DNA from: Candidatus Sulfomarinibacteraceae bacterium
GTDB lineage: Bacteria; Acidobacteriota; Thermoanaerobaculia; Thermoanaerobaculales; Sulfomarinibacteraceae
Assembly (NCBI GenBank): GCA_963796455.1
Contig: CAWCLO010000001.1
Coordinates: 576,001 to 640,000 of the forward strand
DNA: 64,000 nucleotides
Direction: 5' to 3'
Positions 47,568 to 62,934 of this stretch are shown piece by piece; position 1 is the first letter of the stretch; each line of letters opens with the position of its first letter. The position numbers and the translations under genes were made by a program. The notes under the pieces were generated by a model. It saw only the letters and a list, made by a program, of their open reading frames with translations. It was not told where the DNA came from and did not search any database.

Positions 47568-47924
47568 ATGCGCAAGTCTCATGTGTTCGTCGCGACCGTT
47601 TTGATTGGTGTCATGGCATTGAGCCTGGCCAACGTGGCCACCGCCGCCAAAAAGCCCAAGGGCGTGGATCTTTACAAGGAATATTGTAAGCCCTGCCACG
47701 AAGCCGATTCGGAAAACGGCGAATACACCCCCATGACCATGATCCAGGATCAGTGGGATCGTTTCTTCGACAAAAAATACGTCGACAGCCACTCCGGCGT
47801 GATGGATCCCAACCACGACAACAAACCGGTCACCGAGGTCATCAGCGAAGACGATCTCGAGATGATCAAAAAGTTCGCAGTTGACCATGCGGCTGATTCC
47901 GAACAGCCGATGACCTGCGGTTGA
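47568..47924 (+). CDS. Monoheme cytochrome c
   Basis: AAGGAGG RBS, signal peptide, CKPCH, C-terminal HAADSEQPMTCG. Confidence 0.88.
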   Translation: MRKSHVFVATVLIGVMALSLANVATAAKKPKGVDLYKEYCKPCHEADSENGEYTPMTMIQDQWDRFFDKKYVDSHSGVMDPNHDNKPVTEVISEDDLEMIKKFAVDHAADSEQPMTCG

Positions 47925-47952
47925 TTCAGCCTGAAATTAGGAGGAGGACACA

Positions 47953-49596
47953 ATGTTTCGCAAGACACTCTCAGTGCTCGGCATCCTGCTGCTCGGTCTG
48001 ACCACCGTCGGGTTCACCCAGGACGCGGCGACAGCGGAAGAGATCGACAAGCTCAAAGAAGAAATCTCAGACCTCGAAAAACGGGTCATGAAGAATGAGG
48101 TCAAGACCGCCAAAGACCGCGTGAATTTCAGGGGCGACTTCCGCTTCGAGATCAATTCCATCAACTCGACCTATGACGATCATTTCAACGGAATGGCCCT
48201 CCAGAGAATGCTGGTGGACACCCTGTTCTACTTCAACGGCACCGGCATGCCGCCGCAGTCGCCCGCGGATGTGCAGAATTTCATCGCCCAGAATTATGCG
48301 AACTATCTCTACTTCCAGGACAATGTCGTCAGTTTTGACTGGCTCAAGAACACCCTGGGCCAGTTCCCGCCGGAGATGCAAGAAGCTCTGATGCAACAGC
48401 TGCTGCCCTACACCTACACCGAGGGCTACGACTACTCGAACGACATCCTCTACACCAACCGCCTGCGCCTCCAGATGGATGCCAAGGTCGCCGACAGCGT
48501 CGACTTTGCCGGCCGTCTTTCGATGTACAAGGTGTGGGGCGACTCCACGGGAGTCCAGACCTTCAACGGTTTCCCGACCTCGATCAATGTCGACGGCACC
48601 ACCGCCTCGGTCCCGAACTCGGACATCCTGCGCGTCGAGCGCGCCTATTTCACCTGGCACTCCGACAAGATGTATCTGTCGATCGGTCGCAGGCCGTCGA
48701 CCGGCGGCGCTCCGCTCAACCTCCGCAACGATGAGCCCCGCGGTGGAACACCGCTTGGTTCGATCATCAACTACCAGTTTGACGGCGCGACCTTTGGTTG
48801 GAACATCAGCGAAAAGTCCACGTTCCGCCTCTGCTACGGCGTCGGCTTCGAATCCGGCTTCGGCAACGCCCAGGAGCTGCAACAGCCCGCCGACCGGCTC
48901 AAGGACGCGTCCTTCTTCGGTATCAACTGGGATGTCTACAAAAACGAGAATGTCTTCATCCAGGCCAGCATCGCACGTGCATTTGACGTGACCGACGGAT
49001 TCGGCGGCCTCGTCGTCCTGCCCGTTGATCCGGTCTCCGGACAGGATATTCCCGCACCCGTCGTTCTTCGCTACTCCCCGTCGGCCAACCTCGGCGACAT
49101 CACGTGGGCGAGCGCGGTCGTGGTCGGCAACACCGGGCCCTTCGACTATTTCGCCACCCTCTCGTACATGGAGTCCGACCCCAACAACGTCACGACGCCC
49201 TTCGGCGGCCTCTTCTCGGATCCCTTTGAGACTCCCGAAAAACAGGACGGCTACGCCTACTACTTCGGCGCCCGCTATACCTTCGCCAACAACAAGACCA
49301 AGCTCGGTCTCGAGTACAACTACGGCTCCGAGTACTGGTTCAACATGGGCGTGGCCGAGGACAGCCTCTTCGGACCCAAGACCTCGACCCGCGGCAGCGT
49401 GTGGGAGCTCTACCTCACCCACCGGATCACGAAGAACTTCATCCTCAAGCTCGACTACATGAAGTACGACTTCACGTACTCGCAGTCCGGCTGGCACATG
49501 GGCGCTCCGAAGGAACTGGATTCGACTCCTATCCTCGGCTTCCCGTCTCCGACCAGCGCCGACCGTTTCCTGCTAGGATTGCAGGCGCGGTTCTGA
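47953..49596 (+). CDS. DUF3373-like outer-membrane beta-barrel (porin-like)
   Basis: Signal peptide, coiled coil, GDFRF, TNRLRL, VERAYF, IGRRPSTGG, terminal ARF. Confidence 0.75.
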   Translation: MFRKTLSVLGILLLGLTTVGFTQDAATAEEIDKLKEEISDLEKRVMKNEVKTAKDRVNFRGDFRFEINSINSTYDDHFNGMALQRMLVDTLFYFNGTGMPPQSPADVQNFIAQNYANYLYFQDNVVSFDWLKNTLGQFPPEMQEALMQQLLPYTYTEGYDYSNDILYTNRLRLQMDAKVADSVDFAGRLSMYKVWGDSTGVQTFNGFPTSINVDGTTASVPNSDILRVERAYFTWHSDKMYLSIGRRPSTGGAPLNLRNDEPRGGTPLGSIINYQFDGATFGWNISEKSTFRLCYGVGFESGFGNAQELQQPADRLKDASFFGINWDVYKNENVFIQASIARAFDVTDGFGGLVVLPVDPVSGQDIPAPVVLRYSPSANLGDITWASAVVVGNTGPFDYFATLSYMESDPNNVTTPFGGLFSDPFETPEKQDGYAYYFGARYTFANNKTKLGLEYNYGSEYWFNMGVAEDSLFGPKTSTRGSVWELYLTHRITKNFILKLDYMKYDFTYSQSGWHMGAPKELDSTPILGFPSPTSADRFLLGLQARF

Positions 49597-49624
49597 GAAA
49601 ACACAACGATCGAGGAGGCAGCAA

Positions 49625-51028
49625 ATGACTCGGCAGACGATTACCCTGATCTCAATGCTCACCCTGGTCGCAATGCCGGCGCTCGCGGCCGACTATTCCC
49701 ACAAGGAGTATTTCGAGCACTACGAGGGCACCAAGACATGTCTCGGGTGCCACCAGGACGAGGCGGAGACTTTTTTCCACTCGCAGCACTATCAGTGGAA
49801 GGGCGAAACCCCTGCGATCGTCAACGCTGAAGGAAAACCCCTCGGCAAATCGAACACCATCAACGACTTCTGCACCAACCCCATCCCGGCATGGATCGGC
49901 ATCACCAAGAACTCCCGTGGAGAACTCCTCTCACAGGGTTGTTCGAAGTGCCACGCCGGGCTGGGTAAGATGCCCAGTGCAGAAATGAGCCAGGAACAGC
50001 TCGAAAACATCGACTGTCTGATCTGTCACGCGTCGGGCTACAACCGGACACTGGTCGAGAACGACGACGGCAGCCTCGAGTGGAAGCCGATCCTATGGAA
50101 GAACCAGGAAGGCCTCGACTCGGTCTCCAAAAGAATTACCATGCCGAAAAGGACCAGCTGCCTTCGCTGCCACTCCGGATCGGGCGGCGGACCCAACTTC
50201 AAGCGTGGTGACATCGAATACGAATTGGCCGATACCGACCGCACCTTCGATGTCCACATGGGCTCGGACGGCGGCGACATGGCCTGCATGGACTGCCACG
50301 CCGGAACCAGCCACCGGATGCGGGGCCGCGGCGTCGATCTCATGGGTTCGGATTCTGCCGACCGGTTGAGTTGTGCAGACGGAGCCTGCCACGAGGCAGC
50401 TCCTCACCAAAAGGAACTGCTCAACCGCCATGCGGTCAAGGTGGATTGCACGGTGTGCCACATTCCGGTCTTTGCCAAAGCGGATGCCACCGACATGGCC
50501 CGCGACTGGTCGACTCCGGGATACAACGAGGCCAAAGACAAGCACGTGCCCACCATCACAATGGGCTCCAACGTCGAACCCGAAATCACGTGGTACAACG
50601 GAACGGTGTGGGCCCAGCTGCCCAAGGTGCCGGTAACCACCGACGCCGATGGCGTCATTCCGATGGTTGTGCCGCAAGGTTCACTTCAGGACCCCAAAGC
50701 CAAGCTGCACGTGTTCAAGGTTCACACCGGCAAAATGCCCGTGACGAAGGACACCCGCTGGCTCCTCCCCATCAACGTCGAAGAGTTCTTCGCCGACGGC
50801 AACATCGACGGCGCCGTTCGTGAGGCTTCACACGTGCTCTATGGCCTCGAAGACTTCGACTACGAGTGGATGCCGGTCAAACGCTACATGGGCATCTTCC
50901 ACGAGGTCCAGTCGGCGGAATACTCCCTGCGATGCCTCGATTGCCACGGATCCGAAGGGCGGCTCGATTGGGCCGGTCTGGGCTATGAAGGCGATCCTAT
51001 GGCCATGGTCCTGAGCCCTTCGCACTGA
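49625..51028 (+). CDS. Octaheme cytochrome c, tetrathionate reductase (Otr) family
   Basis: Seven CxxCH plus one CX4CH (CADGACH); HYQW, GKSNTINDFC, HSGSGGGPNFKRGD. Confidence 0.85.
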   Translation: MTRQTITLISMLTLVAMPALAADYSHKEYFEHYEGTKTCLGCHQDEAETFFHSQHYQWKGETPAIVNAEGKPLGKSNTINDFCTNPIPAWIGITKNSRGELLSQGCSKCHAGLGKMPSAEMSQEQLENIDCLICHASGYNRTLVENDDGSLEWKPILWKNQEGLDSVSKRITMPKRTSCLRCHSGSGGGPNFKRGDIEYELADTDRTFDVHMGSDGGDMACMDCHAGTSHRMRGRGVDLMGSDSADRLSCADGACHEAAPHQKELLNRHAVKVDCTVCHIPVFAKADATDMARDWSTPGYNEAKDKHVPTITMGSNVEPEITWYNGTVWAQLPKVPVTTDADGVIPMVVPQGSLQDPKAKLHVFKVHTGKMPVTKDTRWLLPINVEEFFADGNIDGAVREASHVLYGLEDFDYEWMPVKRYMGIFHEVQSAEYSLRCLDCHGSEGRLDWAGLGYEGDPMAMVLSPSH

Positions 51029-51048
51029 CCTTTTTCGACGATTGAGAC

Positions 51049-51074
51049 AGCGGGCCTTCGGGCCCGCTTTTTTT
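51049..51074 (+). terminator. Intrinsic terminator
   Basis: AGCGGGCC-TTCG-GGCCCGCT plus T-run. Confidence 0.9.
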
Positions 51075-51246
51075 GTCACGACAGCGTAATCATATTGAGA
51101 CCCCTTCACTCCTTGTGAATCATTTCTCCACTCATTGAAATCGTAATCATTCCTAAATCGTTGACGAAAACAAAGATATAAAACATAGTTAACTGCTATC
51201 CATTGAATAATTGAACGTCTCTGCATATGACCAAAGTGACATAAGC

Positions 51247-51454: not shown

Positions 51455-52342
51455 ATGAGAAGGAGCATCCTGCTGACCCTGGTCGGCGTGGTGTGCGCTC
51501 TGGCCCTTCCTGCGGCGGCTTCTGACGAATCGCCTTGTGCGGATTGTCACGACGAAGTCGCGGCGGAGATGGCCAATCAGATCCACATGCGCATCAAGGC
51601 TTTCGAGGTCTATGGTCGCCAGGTGGGTTGTGAGGGCTGCCACGGAGACGGGACCCAGCATATGGAAGAAGGGGATCCGGCCCTGATCCGGACCTTCAGC
51701 AACCCGGCGGATGATATCTCCGCGTGTCTCGATTGCCACTCGCTCAAGAATCAGGGCGAATGGGAAGCATCGACCCACGCGATGGAAAATATCACCTGCC
51801 TCGACTGTCACTCGATCCACGAGACGGTCAATCCGGTGAACTCGTGCAAAGATTGCCACCAGACGACCTATGCGCAGTTCCAGCTCCCCTCGCACCACCC
51901 GGTGCCTGAGGGCAAAATGGGGTGTGCGAGCTGCCACGATCCGCACGCGGCAACCGAGAATCAGCTCAACACCCACATGCGGCTCAATGACCTCTGCTAC
52001 ACCTGCCACCAGAACAAAGAGGGCCCGTTCATCTTCGAGCACGCCCCGGTGGTCGAGGACTGCAGCTTGTGTCATACACCGCACGGCGCAATCGCAAACA
52101 ACCTGTTGACCGCCAACGAGCCCACGCTCTGCCTGCAGTGCCACGAATTCCACTTCCATGCCGGGCTCCTCAGCCCCGAGGGTGAGTGGGAGGTTGGTGG
52201 TTCTGAGTTCGAGAACCCGGCCGGCGAACACAGCTTCAACCGCTCGTTCACCACCAAGTGCAGCCAGTGCCACTCCCAGGTCCACGGCAGCGACCTCCCG
52301 TCGCAGTCCACCGCGGGTGGCGGCCACGGCGGGGTTCGGTGA
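51455..52342 (+). CDS. Decaheme c-type cytochrome, DmsE/MtrA family
   Basis: AAGGAGG RBS, signal peptide, ten CxxCH, SHHPVPEG, GPFIFEHAPV, CHSQVHGS. Confidence 0.93.
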   Translation: MRRSILLTLVGVVCALALPAAASDESPCADCHDEVAAEMANQIHMRIKAFEVYGRQVGCEGCHGDGTQHMEEGDPALIRTFSNPADDISACLDCHSLKNQGEWEASTHAMENITCLDCHSIHETVNPVNSCKDCHQTTYAQFQLPSHHPVPEGKMGCASCHDPHAATENQLNTHMRLNDLCYTCHQNKEGPFIFEHAPVVEDCSLCHTPHGAIANNLLTANEPTLCLQCHEFHFHAGLLSPEGEWEVGGSEFENPAGEHSFNRSFTTKCSQCHSQVHGSDLPSQSTAGGGHGGVR

Positions 52343-52353
52343 AGGGGGTAGAA

Positions 52354-54588
52354 ATGAAAAACACTATTCGAATCATCCTGATCCTGACCCTCGCTTTGGT
52401 TCCGTTCCAGGCATCTGCCCAAGACGGTGACGAAGCTACCGCAGCGGACAACGGCAACCCCGGACCGTGGATCTTCAGTTTCTACGGCACCGAGTACGTC
52501 GTCCCGGGTTTCTGGGCCGCCGAAGGTGATGTGGAGAGCAAGGCCGAACTCGGCCTCTACGGCGCTTCGTCCGACGACTCGCCGGACATGGCTGCAGAGT
52601 TCTACGACACCGAGTCGGGTCCGACCCTCAATGCGACGGTCGCGTCCCACCAGAAATGGGGCAGCCTCTATTTCCAGGGCGCCTACCAGAGCAACAGCAC
52701 CAATTCCGGTGAGCTCAACTTCGATATCGGGCGGGTCTTTCGCTCCGACAACGAGTACGGCAGGTTTCTCCACCGGCTTGGTCACGATCCGATGGAAAAC
52801 CTCGAGGCGACATCCTTCAACGGCAAGGTGGTCTGGCACACGGACCTCAGCCCGGACCAGGATTACAACCTCAACTACACGAACTTCGAAAGCCGCAACG
52901 AGATCCAGCTGCCTTCGATCAAGGCCCTGACCCTCGGCGTCGGCTTCCGCGAGCAGGCGCGTGACGGCCACCGCCAGGCCTTCACGGTCTCGCACTGCGA
53001 CAACTGCCACATGTACAGCCAGGCCCACGTGCTCAACGAGAAAACCTCGGACGTGACTCTGGACGCCAAGGTCGCCTGGAAGGGTGGATACGCCAAGGCT
53101 GCATTCGACAGCCGGAGCCTCCGCTACGGCAACAACAACTCGGTGTATGTGCAGTATGACGACGCACTCCATCCAGAGTTGCAGGTGCCCGTCTTCAACA
53201 ACCGGCTCCAGTTCGACTCCGAGGTCGGTGCGATTCCGGCCGACCTGTGGCCTGACAGCGACAAAAACCGGACCCGGCTCGACCTGGTCTTCAACGACCT
53301 GGGCGGTTTCACTCTGACCGCCAACGGTGTCTGGTCCGAGACCGAAAACCGGAATGCCAACCTCAAATCCAACTACTCCGGGTATATCGCGACCCTGGCC
53401 AAGGGTTGGAAGAGCGGCTGGCGCTTCCGCTGGCGGGGCCGCGCCTATTCGATCGACAACGACGACATCTTCATCGATGTCAACGACCGTCCATCGATCG
53501 CGGGGCCGCATGTCGGACAGACCTACGAAGACGTCTACGGTCTTAACTTCGACCATGTCCGCAAGTCGGCGCTGAATCGTGATGCCTTCGAATCCAAAGC
53601 CGACGCGAGCTATCGCTTCGGCAAAAAGGCCGGGACGCTCCGCTTCATGTGGAACTATGACACCGTCGATCGCAAGAACTACGAGGTCATGCCCGGTAAA
53701 TCCGAAACCACCACCAACATGATCGGCGCCAACTGGCGCAGCCGGCCTGCAAAGGGCTTCCAGTTCGAAGCCAACCTGAAGTATGCCGACGTCAAGGACG
53801 CCTTCACGCTGATCAACGGTGCGTGTTCGACCCTGGTTTCGAGCTCATACCCGAATCCCTGGAACCCCGAGACGCCCCAGTACACCCAGTTCCACGAGGC
53901 ACGGACCGCCGAGACCACAGCGTCGGCTTCGAGCTGGGGCCGCGCCGATCTGCGGCTCGGCTACACCACCGGCAACACCACCATCTTCGGTAAGTACATC
54001 TACTACGATGGCAACAACAGCGATGGTGATCTGACCGACTGGTCGCGGACCTCCAACACCGCTCTGGTGACCGTGTGGTCGGCGCCCACCGAGAAGATCA
54101 ACCTCTATGGAACCTATACCTGGATGGATTCGGATCTCGGAGTTCCGGTCTGCATAGCCGTTTTCGATGGTTGAGCAGGCACGATTATGGGAGGCCAGGA
54201 TGGCTTCTCTCGTGACATGCTCGACTACAACTCCGAAAGCAATACCTTCATGGCCGGTGTGAAATACAAGAACAGCAAAAAGTTGGAGCTCGGAATCGAC
54301 TTCACGTGGATGGAGGCCAAGGCCGCTCTTGCGCCCTTCGATCTGTCGGCCGACGACTATGTCGAGACCCATCCGCCGATGTCTTACGATTTCTCGCAGA
54401 GTCACACCTACTCAGACATCAACAGCACCCGTACCGATGTCGAACTGTGGGGCACCTTCCGGTTTGCCACCGACTGGTGGGTCCGGCTGAGGTATCACAT
54501 GGTCGACTACAAGGATGACGCACCGTACCTCTACGATACGTCCGGAAGCTACACCTTTGCCGCCGCGGCGCTCGGCGTGGTCTTCTGA
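52354..54588 (+). CDS. MtrB/PioB-like outer-membrane beta-barrel with a CxxCH motif; probable selenoprotein (UGA 54172-54174 read as Sec607), 744 aa
   Basis: ORFs 52354-54174 and 54187-54588 share a frame and are separated by a single TGA. A hairpin follows the TGA. The OMP-type terminal Phe (LGVVF) and tandem TGA-TAA stop occur only in the read-through product. Confidence 0.8.
54175..54220 (+). promoter_or_regulatory. Bacterial SECIS-like stem-loop
   Basis: Lower stem CACGA/TCGTG, upper stem GGGAGGCC/GGCTTCTC with G-U pairs, apical loop AGGAU beginning after a 22-nt spacer from the UGA. Confidence 0.72.
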
Positions 54589-54606: not shown

Positions 54607-54638
54607 AAAGGCCCCACCTTCGGGTGGGGCCTTTTTTT
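54607..54638 (+). terminator. Intrinsic terminator
   Basis: AAAGGCCCCACC-TTCG-GGTGGGGCC-T7. Confidence 0.9.
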
Positions 54639-55130
54639 GGCTTGGGGCTTGGGGCTTGGGCGAAAAGCTATGGGCTATGGGCTATGGGGTTTAAGCAACG
54701 AACTGCAGCCGTTAGCTTTCGTGCCTGTAGCCTATTTCGTGGAGCCGAGCCAAATGCAAAACGCCGGATCGTCAAGGAAAATGGGCGCCGTGTCACCGAC
54801 GGGGCACGGGCACGAGTTGGGATGCTCGGTGGCGACGCGAGACGGAGAAACCGCAGATCACGCAGATGAACGCAGATAACATCGAGCAGGGCTCCTGGTG
54901 GATCGGGGACTCTCGTCGCCACGTTCGCGGGATGTCGTGAGATGGAGTCTGCGAGCGCCGGAGGTGCGAAAGATTCATAGCCCGAGCCTCATGCCCCAAG
55001 CCCTTAGCTTCAGGCCTCAAGCCTCAGGCCTCAGGACTCAGGCCCCAAGTCATTGTGTCACCCGGACCCGGGGGCGCGTCGTACGGACTCGCAGGGCGCC
55101 AGCCGCACGCCCAGAAAGCTCGGTGTGAGC

Positions 55131-55145
55131 TGGCACGGGACTTGC
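55131..55145 (+). promoter_or_regulatory. Sigma54 (-24/-12) promoter
   Basis: TGGCACGGGACTTGC matches TGGCAC-N5-TTGC, about 48 bp before the ATG. Confidence 0.75.
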
Positions 55146-55192
55146 CATACCAGGGCAAAGGGTGGAACCAATCACCCACATTGGAGGTCATC

Positions 55193-56089
55193 ATGGAAAC
55201 CAGGAAGATTTTTATCGTTACGGTCGCCATTCTCTCGGCGGTCATCATCTTCGCAGTCGCCCAACCGGGGACTGCGCAACAGCGCCGCGCCGGAGATCAG
55301 ATCGGAGCCGAATGTGAAGGCGGGCTCAACGCTCTTTTCGATGAAATCGAAATAGTGCCCCTCACGACAGCCGACGAAACCGACATCATCTTTTTACGCG
55401 AGGAAGAAAAGCTCGCCCGCGATGTCTATATCACGCTGGGTGAACGTTGGCAGTTGCCGATCTTCCGCAATATCGCGCGCTCGGAACAGAAGCACATGGA
55501 TCTGGTGTTTCGACTCATTGAGACCTACGAGATGACCGACCCGGTCACGGATGACACCGTTGGCATCTTTACCGACCCCGGTCTGACGCAGCTCTATGGT
55601 GAGCTGGTTGCAAAAGGTGAAACCTCGACCATCGATGCGCTCGAGGTCGGCGCGATCATCGAGGACCTGGATCTGGCGGATCTCTACGAATTGATCGAGG
55701 ACACCGACAACCGTCACGTCCTGCTGGTTGCCAACAATCTCGCCAAAGGTTCGCGCAATCATCTGCGCGCGTTCATGCGGGCGCTCACTGCCCAGGGCGG
55801 GACCTACACACCGCAATACCTCGACCAGGAGACCTTTGACGCGATCGTCACCTCCGACTTCGAGCGCGGCGTGACCTACGATGCCGACGGCAATGCCCTC
55901 GAGGCCTGTGGCGGCGGCTCCCAGGGTTGGGGCATGCGACGCGGCCGGAACGGCGGCCAGGGCAACGGCCAACGTGGCGGCGACGGGTCCGGAGAATGCG
56001 ACGGTACCGGACCGCAGGGCAACGGGAATAACGGCGGACAGAATGGTACAACAACGGCGGCAACGGCGGCAACGGCGGCAACTGAATAG
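55193..56089 (+). CDS. DUF2202-like ferritin-fold exported protein with Gly-rich tail
   Basis: REEEKLARDVY, SEQKH, IEDLDLADL, GSRNHLRAF. GGAGG RBS. Confidence 0.85.
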   Translation: METRKIFIVTVAILSAVIIFAVAQPGTAQQRRAGDQIGAECEGGLNALFDEIEIVPLTTADETDIIFLREEEKLARDVYITLGERWQLPIFRNIARSEQKHMDLVFRLIETYEMTDPVTDDTVGIFTDPGLTQLYGELVAKGETSTIDALEVGAIIEDLDLADLYELIEDTDNRHVLLVANNLAKGSRNHLRAFMRALTAQGGTYTPQYLDQETFDAIVTSDFERGVTYDADGNALEACGGGSQGWGMRRGRNGGQGNGQRGGDGSGECDGTGPQGNGNNGGQNGTTTAATAATAATE

Positions 56090-56117
56090 ATCACGAGTCG
56101 AAATCAAGGAGCGAACA

Positions 56118-56573
56118 ATGGAAAATACAGCCGGGGCCATCTTGACAATCTTCAGCGCTGCGGCCCTCGTCCTGGCGACCACCGGTCTCGCCAGTGCCCA
56201 GGAAGCTGCACCGAATCCAGCCGGTGTCCAGACTCAAGCCAAGAAGGGTGACGGCAGCGGCTCGGTGCAGGGCGCTCAGAACCGAACCGGTACCGCTCCG
56301 AGACTCGGCCCCGCCGACGGTACCGGGCGCCAGGGGCTCGCACCACAGCACAGAACAGGCAACGGGTCCGCAGGCCGGATCGGCGCCGCTCAGGGCAAAG
56401 ATCAGGCAGCGCCAAATGGCATGGGCAATCGTGGACCCAACGAATCGGGCCAGAGAAACCTGACGAGAACCCGGTCGCGAAACCTCAACGGATCTGCACG
56501 AGGCACCTGCTCCGGGCCGGTTGGCCGGTCAGGGCGAGCTTCGGGCGGGTCTCGAGGCGGTGGCCGCCGATAG
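56118..56573 (+). CDS. Exported low-complexity Gly/Arg-rich hypothetical protein
   Basis: AAGGAG RBS, signal peptide, GPADGTG-like motifs, terminator directly downstream. Confidence 0.65.
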   Translation: MENTAGAILTIFSAAALVLATTGLASAQEAAPNPAGVQTQAKKGDGSGSVQGAQNRTGTAPRLGPADGTGRQGLAPQHRTGNGSAGRIGAAQGKDQAAPNGMGNRGPNESGQRNLTRTRSRNLNGSARGTCSGPVGRSGRASGGSRGGGRR

Positions 56574-58170: not shown

Positions 58171-59322
58171 TCAAAACCCCGGATTATCGACACCACGTGA
58201 TCCGTAGCCCCAACCCAGAACCGCAACAATCAGCAGGACAAGTCCTCCATTACCCCAGAGCCGCGGCTTTTCGGAAGAGGTTTTGAGGTCCAGGAATTGG
58301 GTCATGAGTTGCTCTCTCGATGCGAGCGACCGCATGACACGCCGGCGCAGACGCGGGGATCCTTCGACCAACAACAGGAGATGGGCCATCGCCCTCGGCA
58401 GACGACCGGCCTTGCGGTGATTGGCGGCATAGAGAGAGAGATCTCCGGCCTGAATTGCCTCGACCACCGCGCTGGCGTGATGAAAGGCAAGTGACAGGCC
58501 CTCACCGGTGATCGGGTCGATGGAGCCGCCGGCGTCTCCAACCAGCGCGAGACGACCCTGAACCGGCCGCCGGCACCGTTGTTCCAGCGGGCCGGCGCCG
58601 CGGTCGCGCGATCTGGACGGTGCCCCGGCGAGGCGATCGGCAAGAGCGGGAAAACGCAGCAACAAATCGTCAAACCGGGACGTTTGACCGCTCCAGAGCA
58701 TGGCTACTCCGATTTCGGAGTCACTCACAGGGGTTACGTAGGCTTCGCAGCCGTCGCTCCAGTAGACCTCCACCAGGTCCGTCCACGGCGTGATCCCAAA
58801 GTGCCGCCGAACCGAGAAGCGGCGATGTCGAGTCGGGCGACCTTCGAGCCCCGCCCATCGACGAACCCTCGATTTTCTCCCGTCCGCGGCCACCAACCAT
58901 CTGGCTCGAACTCTCCCCTGATCCGTTTCGAATCCGTCCTCCCCCAACCCGCTGACGCGGACGCCCCATCGGAGGTCGGCTCCCAGATCGACCGCGCGCC
59001 GATACAGCGCTTCGTGCAGAACCGGACGTCTGATGCCATAACCACAGCTGCCGCGGAACCGACCCTCGGCGGTACCCGAGTCATCGATATAGCGGACACC
59101 ACGAAACGGGTGCGATGCCATCGAATCGAGGTCCACTCCACTTTGTTTCAGATGTTCGATCCCGTCCGGCATCACGCCCTCACCACACGGGCGGTCGATC
59201 GGCGCTCGAGCGGCCTCCAGGACCACGACCTCAAGGCCGGCCCGCCGGGCCTGGATCGCGGTCATCAGCCCGGCCGGCCCACCGCCGGCGATCACGAGAT
59301 CGGGCCGTTCAGCTCCGCCCAC
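58171..59322 (-). CDS. FAD-dependent oxidoreductase/monooxygenase (SrsC-like position)
   Basis: GGGPAG, PCGEG, AADG, LVGDAGGSIDPITGEG. Confidence 0.85.
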   Translation of the reverse strand: MGGAERPDLVIAGGGPAGLMTAIQARRAGLEVVVLEAARAPIDRPCGEGVMPDGIEHLKQSGVDLDSMASHPFRGVRYIDDSGTAEGRFRGSCGYGIRRPVLHEALYRRAVDLGADLRWGVRVSGLGEDGFETDQGRVRARWLVAADGRKSRVRRWAGLEGRPTRHRRFSVRRHFGITPWTDLVEVYWSDGCEAYVTPVSDSEIGVAMLWSGQTSRFDDLLLRFPALADRLAGAPSRSRDRGAGPLEQRCRRPVQGRLALVGDAGGSIDPITGEGLSLAFHHASAVVEAIQAGDLSLYAANHRKAGRLPRAMAHLLLLVEGSPRLRRRVMRSLASREQLMTQFLDLKTSSEKPRLWGNGGLVLLIVAVLGWGYGSRGVDNPGF

Positions 59323-61063
59323 GGGACCTCCGGGAGCGAGCCATCGCCAGGGTGGATCGAAGAATTGATGAGGCGATCTTGAAGGGCGTTACACATACCG
59401 GCGGAGCCAGTTCACCCGCCTGCCACAGAAGAATGCCCTGGCGGCGGCGGATCTTGCCCGACGAAGTTCGTGGCAGGGTGCCCGGTGGAAGCACCTCGAC
59501 GTGCTGCGGATCAAGTCCGGTCGCCGCTCGAACCGCACGCGCCATTTCGCCGGCGATCACGGGGTAGCGACCGGCGGGCTGGTTTCCCATGGCTTCTGCC
59601 AACACCACCAACTCCTCACCCGCTCCACCATCCGGGACAAAAGACGCCGCCAACGTGCAGCCGGTACGAACCCCCTCAACATCGTCGAGGGCATGTTCGA
59701 CCTCGATCGGCGAGTGATTGCGTCCACGGAGGATGATCAGGTCTTTGGACCGGCCGGTCAGAAAGAGCTCGCCCGAGGCGAGAAATCCGAGATCTCCGGT
59801 GTCGAGCCACCCGTCCCGAATCGCCCTGGCCGTCTCTCGGGGCTGACCGAAGTAACCATCCATGAGGGACGGGCCCGAGACCTCAAGGCGACCGATCTCT
59901 CCTTCGGGTTTTTGTTCTCCATTTGCGTCGACGATCCTGATTTCAAAATCCGGCAGCGGACGGCCCACCGACACGATCTCGACACCCGCTGGGTCTTCGG
60001 ATGCCACGCGCTCGTCGGCCAGAAGATCACGATCATAGAAGCGGCTCGTGAAAGGCCTGGAGACCTCGGAGAAGGTGACTGCCAGCGACGCTTCGGACAG
60101 ACCATAAACCGGAGTCAGGGCCTCAGCCCGGAAACCCCACCGGGCAAAGCGATCCTGAAAGGCCCTGAGGACCCTGGCGGCAACCGGTTCGGCACCGCAG
60201 AGCGCAACCCCCCACTGCGACAGATCGACCCCTTCAAGATCCTCGTCGCGAATCTTTTCGACGCACAGCCCATAGGCAAAATTCGGAGCGGGAGAGACCG
60301 TCGCCCGGTATTTCGAAATGCACCGCAACCAGACGGCAGGCCGAGCGACAAAGAGCTCCGGTGGGAGCAACGTCAGATCCGCCCCGCGCTCGAGGGCAGG
60401 AAAGACACACCCGATCAGCCCCATGTCGTGATAGAGGGGCAGCCAGCTGACGCCGCTGTGGGTGATCCCGTTGCCATCGGGCCAGAATCGGTTCAAGCGA
60501 ATGGTCTGTGCCACTACGGCACGGTGGCTCAGAGCAACCGGTCTGGGTACTGAGGTCGTTCCCGACGAAAATTGAATCATCGCCAGGTCGGTACTTTGCG
60601 GAGCATCGGTTTCCAGCCCGTCGTCATCGAGCGAAGCTACCGTACGACATCCGAGCCAGGGCTTCGCAAGCTCGATCACGGTTCCGAGAATTCGGCGAAC
60701 CCTGGTGTCGGCAAGCACCAACCGGGCATCAACCGCGCCCAGCATGGCTGCCGTTCGAGCGGTGTATTCATCCAGACGACCGAGCCGGACCGGCGGGTAG
60801 AGCGGCACCGGAATCCCACCCGCCATCAGGACTGCAAAAAACGCGTCGAAGAACTCGGGGGATGTGGGATACACGAGGGCAACTCGATCGCCACGCTCGA
60901 TGCCAAGGGCCGCCAGACCTCCTGCACAGCGCAGGGCACGATCTCGGATTTCCGACCAGGGGAAGAATGAAGCCCTTTCGTGACGGTCGATGAATCGCAA
61001 CCCGTGATCGGGAACGGCCGCCACCCGGTCGAGAAGATCGATCAGGGTGACGGAATCATCCAT
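59309..61063 (-). CDS. Fatty acyl-AMP ligase
   Basis: QFSSGTT, WLPLYHDMGLIG, PNFAY, YGLSEA, TGDLG, PRTSSGK. Confidence 0.9.
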   Translation of the reverse strand: MDDSVTLIDLLDRVAAVPDHGLRFIDRHERASFFPWSEIRDRALRCAGGLAALGIERGDRVALVYPTSPEFFDAFFAVLMAGGIPVPLYPPVRLGRLDEYTARTAAMLGAVDARLVLADTRVRRILGTVIELAKPWLGCRTVASLDDDGLETDAPQSTDLAMIQFSSGTTSVPRPVALSHRAVVAQTIRLNRFWPDGNGITHSGVSWLPLYHDMGLIGCVFPALERGADLTLLPPELFVARPAVWLRCISKYRATVSPAPNFAYGLCVEKIRDEDLEGVDLSQWGVALCGAEPVAARVLRAFQDRFARWGFRAEALTPVYGLSEASLAVTFSEVSRPFTSRFYDRDLLADERVASEDPAGVEIVSVGRPLPDFEIRIVDANGEQKPEGEIGRLEVSGPSLMDGYFGQPRETARAIRDGWLDTGDLGFLASGELFLTGRSKDLIILRGRNHSPIEVEHALDDVEGVRTGCTLAASFVPDGGAGEELVVLAEAMGNQPAGRYPVIAGEMARAVRAATGLDPQHVEVLPPGTLPRTSSGKIRRRQGILLWQAGELAPPVCVTPFKIASSILRSTLAMARSRRSRGRS

Positions 61064-61298
61064 CGATGCGCTCCCGGATCGCATCCACAAGATCGCCCAC
61101 CGTGACAATCCCCTCGACCTGATCGAGTTCGACCCGAAATCGGTTCTCCACTTCGAGAGCGAGGGTCAGGCTCTTGAGTGAGTCCAGTTCGAGGTCTTCA
61201 ACCAGACGCATCTCAGGCTGGAGTTCACCGGTCCAACCGACATGGGTTCGAGCCACCTCGGTGATCCCCTCGAGGACCTCACTTCGTGCCAGGCTCAC
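61056..61298 (-). CDS. Acyl carrier protein
   Basis: LVEDLELDSL phosphopantetheine site and VTVGDLV; GTG start overlaps the upstream stop. Confidence 0.88.
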   Translation of the reverse strand: MSLARSEVLEGITEVARTHVGWTGELQPEMRLVEDLELDSLKSLTLALEVENRFRVELDQVEGIVTVGDLVDAIRERIDG

Positions 61299-61861
61299 GC
61301 GACCTCCCCTGGTTCGACCGCGGCCGCCCCAGCTACAAGGGCCCGCTCCTCGACTGCAACGCGAACCCGCAGGAGGAGCAGATTGGCGACGCTGAAAAAC
61401 ACCGCGGTGAGCCACGCGAAATGAACCATTGGAATGGCGGCAATCTCGAGAACCACCGCCAGATAATTCGGATGTCGAAGCCACCGGTAGGGGCCGGTCA
61501 CCACCAGGTCTTCGCCGGGAACAACCACCACACGAGTCGTCCACCTCTGTCCAAGGGTGCTGAGAGCCCACCACCGCAGCACGAGGGCCACGATCAGAAC
61601 CGTCATCGATACGAGCGCAACCACCGGTATCCAAGGACGACGGAGGAGCCAGACCTCGGCAACGCAAGATACGAGAAATCCGCCGTGGAGAAGCACCATC
61701 ACAGGATAATGTCCGGAACCAACCTCGAGAGCCCCACGATCTCGCAAAAGGCGCAAATTCCGATCGGACACCCGCATCTCCCACAGGCGCTGGACGGCGA
61801 TCAAGCCGACCAGAAAGGTGTAGGCGACGCGGGAATCGACTTCGAAGAAGGTGCCCGTCAT
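61295..61861 (-). CDS. Isoprenylcysteine carboxyl methyltransferase family protein (SrsB/BpsB-like)
   Basis: LGQRWTTRV, GPYRWLRHPNY, EERAL; ATGA overlap with the PKS stop. Confidence 0.88.
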   Translation of the reverse strand: MTGTFFEVDSRVAYTFLVGLIAVQRLWEMRVSDRNLRLLRDRGALEVGSGHYPVMVLLHGGFLVSCVAEVWLLRRPWIPVVALVSMTVLIVALVLRWWALSTLGQRWTTRVVVVPGEDLVVTGPYRWLRHPNYLAVVLEIAAIPMVHFAWLTAVFFSVANLLLLRVRVAVEERALVAGAAAVEPGEVA

Positions 61862-62934
61862 TGTCCGTCCCATCGCAACAAAACCAACTCGGAGCAAAAA
61901 CCGGGGCCCATCGCGGTTATCACACCCCAACTCTCCCCTGCCGGCGGCGTTGCCATGGCCTCTTCGAGCACCATCAGGACCGAGGTGGAGGAGAGGTTGC
62001 CGACCTCGCGCAGGGTTCGCCAGGCGCTGTCGAGGGCGCCCTCCGGCAGATCCAGCGAGTCCTGCATGGCCTCGAGGACCTTGGGTCCACCCGGATGAGA
62101 GATCCAGTATTCGATGTTGTTCCTTTGCAGATTGTTCGCGCCAAGGAACGCGTCAACATCATCACGAAGGTGACGGCGCACCATTTCAGGCACCATGGCC
62201 GAAAGCACGACTTTGAAACCACGCTCCGAGACATCCCAGCCCATCACGCGTTCGCTCTCCGGATAGAATGACGACCGGCTGGCTATGATCTCAGGCCCAA
62301 CGGCGTCACGATCGGAACCAACCAGCACAACCGCCGCCGCACCATCTCCAAAGAGACCCGATGCAATCAGATTCTCGACCGAAAGATCTTCCCGTTGCAG
62401 GGTCAGCGAGCACAACTCGACGGAGAGCAGAACGACGACGTCGCTGGGATGACCCTTGAGATAGTCCGCAGCTCGCGCGACCCCGGCCGCTCCGGCGAGG
62501 CACCCGAGCCCGAAAATCGGCACCCTCTTCACGTCATTTCGCAGACCGATGCGATTGATCAGACGGGCATCGATCGATGGCGTCGCAACGCCGGTGACGG
62601 TGACAAAAAAGATGGCATCCACATCCTCGACCCCGAGTCCGGCACGCTCGAGAGCAGCGATCACCGCCTCACCGCCCAACTCGGTGGCGACGCGAATCCA
62701 GTGGTCGTTCGCCTCACCCCAACCGGTGAGCTTCGGATACTCCTCGAGGGGGAGCGCCAGATGGCGGCCACCGACCAGCACGTTCCGATGCAGATCCTCC
62801 AACCGCCTCAGGTTGAAATAGCGCTCGGCCCACTGCTCGCGAAAGGCGGCCAGCAAGGTCTCCTGATCGTAGAAATGATCGGGCAGCACCGAGGCCACTC
62901 CTGCAATATTTATCCCACCCACCGAGTCATCCAA
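61858..62934 (-). CDS. Type III polyketide synthase
   Basis: Cys-His-Asn triad motifs GLGCLAG, SHPGG, GNLSS; also LFGDGA and MGPGF. Confidence 0.94.
   Translation of the reverse strand: MDDSVGGINIAGVASVLPDHFYDQETLLAAFREQWAERYFNLRRLEDLHRNVLVGGRHLALPLEEYPKLTGWGEANDHWIRVATELGGEAVIAALERAGLGVEDVDAIFFVTVTGVATPSIDARLINRIGLRNDVKRVPIFGLGCLAGAAGVARAADYLKGHPSDVVVLLSVELCSLTLQREDLSVENLIASGLFGDGAAAVVLVGSDRDAVGPEIIASRSSFYPESERVMGWDVSERGFKVVLSAMVPEMVRRHLRDDVDAFLGANNLQRNNIEYWISHPGGPKVLEAMQDSLDLPEGALDSAWRTLREVGNLSSTSVLMVLEEAMATPPAGESWGVITAMGPGFCSELVLLRWDGQ

Follow-up and report, generated by a model that had tools for sequence, protein, structure and literature searches.

An MtrB-like outer-membrane barrel of an acidobacterium is a predicted selenoprotein with a putative heme c motif and a decaheme partner

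In Shewanella, the outer-membrane barrel MtrB has 26 strands with long extracellular loops, and the C terminus of its partner MtrA faces out (PMC7198977, PDB 6R2Q); MtrC is contacted only by heme A10 and residues 284-306 of MtrA (PMC7198977). A second pair, OmcKL, has been described as a porin:cytochrome conduit (PMC10553843), in which OmcK is treated as extracellular and without a periplasmic partner; that article mentions selenocysteine zero times. The link of the barrel analysed here to GSU2204 of G. sulfurreducens and to HS1_RS02765 of HotSeep-1 rests on the name of the family's HMM together with the citation of PMC4070692 in PMC10553843, and the same citation ties OmcL to GSU2204. The GSU2204 family is included among the high-confidence predicted selenoproteins in Table 1 of a 2026 review (PMC13188914), and its selenocysteine is not named in passages of PMC1914089, PMC11475568, PMC8528874 and bioRxiv 2026.05.27.727921. 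The literature searched contained no experiments on the heme, selenium or function of this family.

MccSep (ExtKL, GSU2937-2936), a periplasmic soluble pentaheme polysulfide reductase, combines heme c with selenium: its Sec lies in a mobile D-G-U loop next to a heme that has Cys as a ligand, and the enzyme reduces polysulfide and selenite (PMC13510729). The His/Cys hemes of TsdA and SoxAX are cited in the same paper as sulfur catalysts. Natural ligation of a heme by Sec has been described for a P450 (PMC11703216). In our literature search, we found no Sec-ligated heme that was of c-type or located in an outer-membrane barrel. The fused monoheme cytochrome-porin Cyc2 may be likened, by description only, to the protein analysed here, as an outer-membrane barrel with one c-type heme motif. 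In Cyc2 the heme is carried on an N-terminal domain, and neither an inserted decaheme nor Sec is known for it.

In the window, i.e., the whole 64,000-nucleotide stretch analysed, an ATG at 52354 opens a frame that reads ...VPVCIAVFDG and then reaches a TGA at 54172-54174. As the first-pass annotation had pointed out, the same frame continues beyond this apparent stop, for 137 codons (AGTIMGGQDG...LGVVF), to a TGA at 54586-54588 followed by TAA. The features of the locus are collected in Table 1. The encoded protein scored 499.6 bits over residues 53-606 against NCBIfam model NF041027, 'GSU2204 family CXXCH-containing (seleno)protein' (cut-off 350), and the model ends at residue 606, directly before the UGA. 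The score, the CxxCH (C215-D-N-C218-H219) and the Sec/Cys right after the modelled part all agree with membership; thus, judged by its sequence, the barrel is a new acidobacterial member of the already catalogued NF041027 (GSU2204/OmcL) family. The GSU2203/GSU2204 kinship named by the first-pass annotation was right, since both NF041027 and, for the upstream gene, NF041028 scored over their cut-offs. Pfam contains no model for the barrel, NF040886 (MccSep) did not match it, and in the Atlas it matched MtrB_PioB clusters only. NF041027 was over its cut-off in 41 of 401 genomes of the phylum. The nearest named loci are from Thermoanaerobaculia and Ca. Sulfomarinibacteraceae (69-70%), and named relatives extend to Desulfuromonas, Geothermobacteraceae, Desulfurivibrionaceae, Nitrospiraceae and Methylomirabilota.

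Table 1. Positions and supporting observations for the barrel gene, its elements and the adjoining units in the window.
Feature	Positions	Strand	Basis or remark
Upstream unit: small monoheme cytochrome, DUF3373 protein, octaheme tetrathionate-reductase-like cytochrome	47568..51068	+	own terminator 51049-51068
Two sigma-70-like promoter matches, both weak, ahead of the decaheme gene	51095..51189	+	9/12 matches; 4 found vs 2.5 expected
MtrA-like decaheme cytochrome c, GSU2203/OmcK family	51455..52342	+	NF041028 336.1, cut-off 325; MtrA 6r2q_A E 4e-38
Barrel gene, GSU2204/OmcL family, 744 aa if TGA607 = Sec	52354..54588	+	predicted 26-strand outer-membrane beta-barrel, C-terminal Phe
Likely signal peptide, aa 1-22, ending A-S-A	52354..52419	+	read off sequence; N-terminal helix in model
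Putative heme c motif H214-C215-x-x-C218-H219, tip of long strand 7/8 hairpin (predicted outer face)	52993..53010	+	C, C, H in 126/126 rows covering motif
C491, likely disulfide partner of C600	53824..53826	+	co-occurrence, coupling
C600, Cys of C-x6-U; not conserved, covaries with C491	54151..54153	+	homolog comparison
In-frame UGA, predicted Sec607, within D-G-U, tip of long strand 21/22 hairpin (predicted outer face)	54172..54174	+	homolog comparison; local pLDDT 63
Bacterial SECIS hairpin	54172..54223	+	upper stem 54189-54209, apical loop GGA
Intrinsic terminator closing the two-gene unit	54607..54634	+	12 pairs, T run

From sequence comparison, we consider it nearly certain that UGA607 is read as selenocysteine, giving a single 744-residue protein. 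The recoding is well supported because the homologs end at this codon, the TGA is conserved, the Cys orthologs have no SECIS, the SECIS covaries, and the host has the Sec machinery. The database search found 180 homologs, and each of the 120 that were listed terminates with D/N-G at the residue preceding the UGA position, bearing out the expectation that gene callers split this gene. Among 201 genomes of the class, 37 have a match; the site is spanned in 34 of them, and all 34 have the TGA (33 single, 1 double TGA), with 136-138 open codons after it wherever the contig is long enough. Among 36 longer stretches taken from the phylum at large, the codon is TGA in 29, Cys (TGC/TGT) in 4 and neither in 3. 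Together with these 4 genomic orthologs, 4 database proteins have Cys at this position, and the family tree contains only 2 changes of Sec to Cys. The substitution pattern is of the same coding type before and after the UGA, with values for codon positions 1/2/3 of 0.30/0.24/0.44 and 0.31/0.29/0.47, respectively (10 pairs).

The machinery that this reading needs is present: the host genome has selA, selB and selD over cut-off and a tRNA-Sec with TCA anticodon letters. None of the 4 Cys-type genomes, which belong to two families and hence are not independent, has selA over cut-off, and a fifth genome, with a UGA copy, does have it. A search for selA across the class matched 199 of 201 genomes and so does not discriminate; this tally, like the no-match totals for the barrel and MccSep, takes in the unpublished genomes G004, G175 and G179, on which nothing else said here depends.

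The hairpin that the first-pass annotation had placed after the UGA was found as described. The UGA plus 56 nt folds with -26.7 kcal/mol (z = -4.96), and none of 200 shuffled sequences was equally stable. The upper stem has 9 bp, and the apical loop, which is GGA or, with the closing A-U unpaired, AGGAU, lies 22-23 nt 3' of the UGA, so that the hairpin falls within all four bSECIS limits, i.e., a loop of 3-9 nt containing G, a stem of 4-16 bp, a spacing of 16-37 nt and an MFE of at most -7.5 (PMC13188914). The stem-loop motif is present in 43 of 48 distinct UGA loci vs 0 of 4 Cys loci, and the codon of Gly614 is GGC in 42 of 42 cases vs a background of 54%. In the alignment, 83.6% of the stem cells are paired, and both sides have changed in 6 of 9 pairs; the pairing exceeds that of 500 shuffles and of all slid controls, a result that is inflated by related sequences. 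In the 5.0-Mb genome, TGA-N18-GGCCAG-NN-(T/C)GGC occurs once, at the barrel-gene site. A sequencing error at the TGA is refuted by its retention in homologs and by contigs of four public sediment runs, which span 54172-54174 and have no difference there among those listed (the check covers contig pieces only, and 31 difference rows stand outside those listed). Additionally, one contig piece from an RNA run spans 54163-54229 with 0 other letters. Regarding the claim that the selenoprotein is hidden, it is so for gene callers, but NCBIfam and the 2026 review already list the family.

The barrel gene starts 11 nt after the end of the decaheme gene, and a gene with ten CxxCH motifs lies immediately upstream of the barrel in 36 of 36 regions. 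In the host, this two-gene unit is bounded by terminators on both sides. No third cytochrome or MtrC-type partner gene is conserved in the compared regions, and a terminator comes right after the barrel; we propose that the pair does without a third cytochrome because the decaheme corresponds to MtrA, while the redox centre on the outside is likely provided by the barrel itself. A few of the compared regions have other multiheme genes nearby. The host pair resembles OmcKL in gene order and in its NF041028 and NF041027 scores over the cut-offs. Unlike OmcKL of Geobacter, it belongs to an acidobacterium. Where PMC10553843 treats OmcK as extracellular, the OmcK analysed here is homologous to MtrA, and modelling places it within the barrel. 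The octaheme Otr-like cytochrome of the upstream unit scored 285 bits against TIGR04315, below the cut-off of 375, and this Otr-like cluster adjoins the decaheme-barrel pair in close relatives only.

The AlphaFold2 model of the barrel (132 sequences) has a pLDDT of 90.5, a pTM of 0.85 and, by our own tally over its listed elements, 26 barrel strands, five of which follow the Sec. The best solved-structure match is MtrB (6r2q_B; E 5.9e-23, TM 0.66, 12% identity). TIGR03509 (MtrB/PioB) did not match the whole protein at E 0.001, gave 17.5 bits against its cut-off of 240 for the last 137 aa, and matched nowhere in the host genome, the controls being likewise silent. The comparison with the Shewanella system (TIGR03509 MtrB/PioB, TIGR03508 DmsE/MtrA) has two sides. 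The likeness lies in the predicted 26-strand barrel around a decaheme and in the best fold and sequence matches, whereas the low identity, the unreached TIGR03509 cut-off, the absence of a conserved MtrC from the host unit, and the CxxCH and predicted Sec on extended outer hairpins set the host barrel apart. The fold match, model and family scores together support the view of the first-pass annotation that an MtrB-like barrel with a CxxCH is paired with an MtrA-like decaheme, and a conduit architecture for the pair is, on these models, very probable.

In the model, long loops follow the odd strands and tight turns the even strands, and the tips of the CxxCH hairpin (strands 7/8) and the Sec hairpin (strands 21/22) lie on the same face. 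This face is predicted to be the outer one because the long loops of MtrB are extracellular. We modelled a complex of a Cys-type ortholog barrel with the C-terminal 109 residues of the partner decaheme, including 4 hemes. Its score was 0.93 (best of 3 controls 0.00), above a threshold that 116 of 157 solved complexes attained, as against 2 of 215 mismatched pairs; at least 95% of the contacts agreed between runs and the partner pLDDT was at least 90, although the pass may reflect memory of MtrAB. The named contacts, in ortholog numbering, include 178-189 in the CxxCH hairpin and 561-570 plus 573 in the Sec hairpin, where Cys is 571; residues 571-572 are absent from them. Both hairpins are thus predicted to touch the outer end of the decaheme. 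However, they arise from almost opposite positions on the barrel wall, and no part of the barrel model is less certain than the Sec loop, with a pLDDT of 63. Coupling between H214 and G606 is weak (z 2.9; 254 sequences, effective 137; 17 of the top 60 pairs on adjacent strands). K158 couples to H214 (z 4.1) and to F604/D605 (z 5.4 and 4.7), which in so noisy an analysis is a hint only.

Taken as a whole, our best reading stands at about an even chance: an MtrB-like barrel selenoprotein would sheathe the decaheme and carry a surface heme of its own, and Sec would act at that heme. Its first step, the recoding signals of UGA607 and the fixed decaheme-barrel gene pair lacking a conserved MtrC-type third gene, is shown by comparison. 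The 26 strands and the C-terminal end of the decaheme inside the barrel, touching the CxxCH and Sec hairpins on the outer face, are predicted. The CxxCH would then bind heme c as an eleventh centre, taking the place of the first heme of MtrC; C491-C600 would be a structural staple for the Sec hairpin and not a redox partner; and Sec607, helped by His/Lys214, would be the sixth ligand of the barrel heme or a nucleophile beside it. Such an arrangement could couple the one-electron steps of the wire to two-electron chalcogen chemistry at the cell surface. A position of Sec at the barrel heme seems slightly favoured.

MccSep is the closest analogy for this chemistry, as it also has a heme c motif plus Sec in D-G-U. 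Nevertheless, we saw no homology, and its heme-ligating Cys has no counterpart in the barrel. The most likely substrate event would be the breaking of S-S bonds of extracellular polysulfide or sulfur, although a sulfur substrate is a tentative suggestion. In favour of sulfur, the host has dsrA and the adjoining Otr-like gene, and related Ca. Sulfomarinibacter induce otr in response to tetrathionate and contain unnamed cytochrome-barrel clusters (PMC8528874). Against it, MccSep does not co-occur (NF040886 was over its cut-off in 1 of 401 phylum genomes, which had no NF041027 over cut-off, and was absent from the host), the Otr cluster adjoins the pair only in close kin, and the sole expression data point to minerals or partner cells. 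The fullest version, in which the barrel is a surface enzyme whose c-type heme, fed by ten hemes, is ligated by His and Sec (or has Sec poised beside it) and catalyses on extracellular sulfur, is possible but not something we would expect.

The expression data fit better with a pair that only conducts, the alternative that survives best even if we regard it as unlikely. Here the barrel heme would be the eleventh heme of a wire that exchanges single electrons with partner cells, electrodes, humics or minerals. Either Sec would be the sixth ligand of this heme and adjust its potential, or the decaheme would provide that ligand through its additional invariant His; substrates would not be converted covalently. 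On hematite and magnetite, GSU2203 and GSU2204 rise by a factor of about 1.5 to 2.7 (PMC4070692, Table 2), OmcKL homologs of HotSeep-1 are expressed 4-fold above oetABI (PMC10553843), and OmcKL is transcribed in an Orca Basin MAG (bioRxiv 10.64898/2026.02.09.704686). The mineral fold changes are, however, small. A further point in favour of simple conduction is the decaheme itself: three residues past the heme-9 motif, all 35 sequences compared have His instead of the Asp of MtrA, and in the complex model this His meets the base of the Sec hairpin (1:565 with 3:247). Relatives without Sec also retain the CxxCH. On the other hand, the costly Sec has been kept across several phyla with only the two changes to Cys noted above, which suggests chemistry that Cys does poorly.

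Both the conducting pair and our best reading require a heme on the barrel. The putative CxxCH probably binds one, to judge from its conservation. Alternatively, His214-Cys-Cys-His219 would be a dithiol or metal site without heme that relays two electrons from the decaheme to Sec or binds a metal(loid) together with it, an idea that gains from the unusual place that an outer barrel loop would be for heme attachment and from the covariation of His/Lys214 with Sec. Of 245 sequences with Sec, with Cys or truncated at the UGA, 244 have His or Lys at position 214, and in 6 full-length relatives without Sec/Cys it is M, M, M, Q, F and H (His/Lys in 1 of 6); three further rows without Sec/Cys look frameshifted and were set aside from this count. 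The loop between hemes 9 and 10 of the decaheme behaves in the same way, with 37-56 aa in 32 partners of Sec/Cys barrels and 19-23 aa in 3 others. Thus, in the sequences compared, His/Lys214 and the long heme 9-10 loop (32/32 vs 0/3) appear to travel with Sec. What makes a heme-free site improbable is the His after CxxC, which is invariant (126/126) and kept after the second Cys even in a C-x4-CH variant (P0269), as for a proximal heme ligand. Of the barrel His residues, only H219 is constant (H140 236/245, H144 220/245, H273 207/245). GSU2204 has, moreover, been annotated as a putative cytochrome c (PMC4070692).

The barrel has four cysteines, C215, C218, C491 and C600, and both the HCDNCH motif at C215 and the C-x6-U spacing between C600 and U607 are as the first-pass annotation claimed. 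Its proposal that the latter form a redox centre fared worse. For C600 and U607 as a redox-active selenenylsulfide pair recharged by the hemes, it can be said that C600 is present in the host copy and in 174 of 254 sequences (those kept of 343 after 89 were dropped as >=95% identical, <60% covered or lacking the motif). However, of 53 full-length Sec/Cys-type sequences, 30 lack C600 and keep Sec/Cys, and the 23 with C600 all have C491. Of the 254 non-redundant sequences, 161 have C491 as well as C600, 75 have neither and 18 have only one of them. They were gained or lost jointly in independent tree pairs (median sign-test p 0.008 and 0.004; 13 and 12 pairs), and the coupling analysis puts C491-C600 in 4th place. 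In two full-length sequences with C491 and no C600, a Cys is located in the downstream half of the Sec hairpin. An equivalent of C600 without C491 occurs in 13 UGA-truncated records, including Desulfuromonadia-type ones, but these cover the upstream part only; when metagenome contigs were scanned with single proteins for such loci, the two scans gave 186 and 47 pattern matches, with 0 relatives among them. No other Cys at 491, 600 or downstream is found in 26 of the 53 full-length sequences. Because C600 comes and goes with C491 while Sec stays, C491-C600 is likely an optional structural disulfide; the C600-U607 redox pair was rejected for the host copy and is, as a general explanation, very unlikely. 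Across the sequences compared, Sec/Cys607 and the CxxCH are the only constant sulfur or selenium residues.

Finally, there is a negligible chance that translation really ends at the UGA and that the final 133 codons form a separate gene, or that the reading is an artefact: an ATG 12 nt past the UGA does start a 133-aa ORF and locus L038 has a second TGA 15 codons on, but this Met is Leu, Thr or another residue in many homologs, the downstream piece has no signal peptide and contains the last five strands, the Cys orthologs are one ORF, and the SECIS covaries.

The family, its Sec and its partner are thus catalogued, and no paper that we found assigns a function to them. Because annotation cuts the gene in two, work on OmcKL of Geobacter and of syntrophic sulfate reducers has left the final five strands and the selenium out of the discussion. 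The comparison presented here narrows the question to one site, composed of the heme motif, His/Lys214 and the predicted Sec607, from which C600 drops out. In marine Thermoanaerobaculia with dsr genes, the pair is a candidate for the cell-surface end of a respiratory chain that uses sulfur or metals. If the OmcKL of ANME partners also has Sec, methane-oxidising consortia would rely on selenium for a leading conduit, through which sulfur species might be exchanged in addition to electrons.

Position 607 of the barrel, the predicted MtrB-like outer-membrane selenoprotein, is occupied by neither Sec nor Cys in the full-length relatives listed as non-Sec in the table, while the heme motif is retained. 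These relatives have M, Q, F or H immediately before that motif; in their partner decahemes, the heme 9-10 loop is short. Genomes G368 and G222 each encode the barrel in two forms, one with Sec and one without. Among the UGA copies, those at loci L041, L079, L084 and L088 have a longer Sec loop and are followed by a stem-loop of different sequence, and in three of the four a Cys is located 10-16 residues downstream of Sec. At L038 (G146:C454), a second in-frame TGA occurs 15 codons past the Sec codon, probably because the gene is broken or the sequence misassembled.

The partner decaheme contains two His residues in addition to the ten non-motif His common to MtrA; the extra His located three residues past the heme-9 motif is invariant (35/35 sequences).

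The separate upstream cytochrome unit adjoins the barrel pair only in close relatives. Its octaheme Otr-like cytochrome has seven CxxCH motifs and one C-x4-CH, and scored below the cut-off of TIGR04315. Downstream, the ferritin-like DUF2202 protein and the small secreted protein also follow the barrel in three relatives. A glgC-like gene adjoins the polyketide synthase cluster.

Location of the features described in the text
Feature	Location	Strand
Upstream unit: small monoheme cytochrome, DUF3373 protein, octaheme Otr-like cytochrome	window 47568-51068	
Partner decaheme	window 51455-52342	+
Barrel Sec codon	window 54172-54174	+
DUF2202 protein with Gly/Asn-rich tail, then small low-complexity secreted protein	window 55055-56573	
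Type III polyketide synthase, membrane protein, acyl carrier-like ORF, AMP-binding ligase, FAD oxidoreductase	window 58171-62934	-
Non-Sec barrel relatives, genomic	L080:7844-10021; L085:7984-10308; L094:7805-9745	
Non-Sec barrel relatives, proteins	P0222; P0265; P0269	
Host-genome multi-CxxCH open frames	G000:C4:488000-491700; C4:912486 onward	

The host genome has 22 open frames with at least four CxxCH motifs, some of which contain 25, 23 and 16. The D-G-U sequence at the Sec site is common to the barrel and the periplasmic pentaheme selenoenzyme MccSep (PMC13510729), two unrelated heme c selenoproteins.
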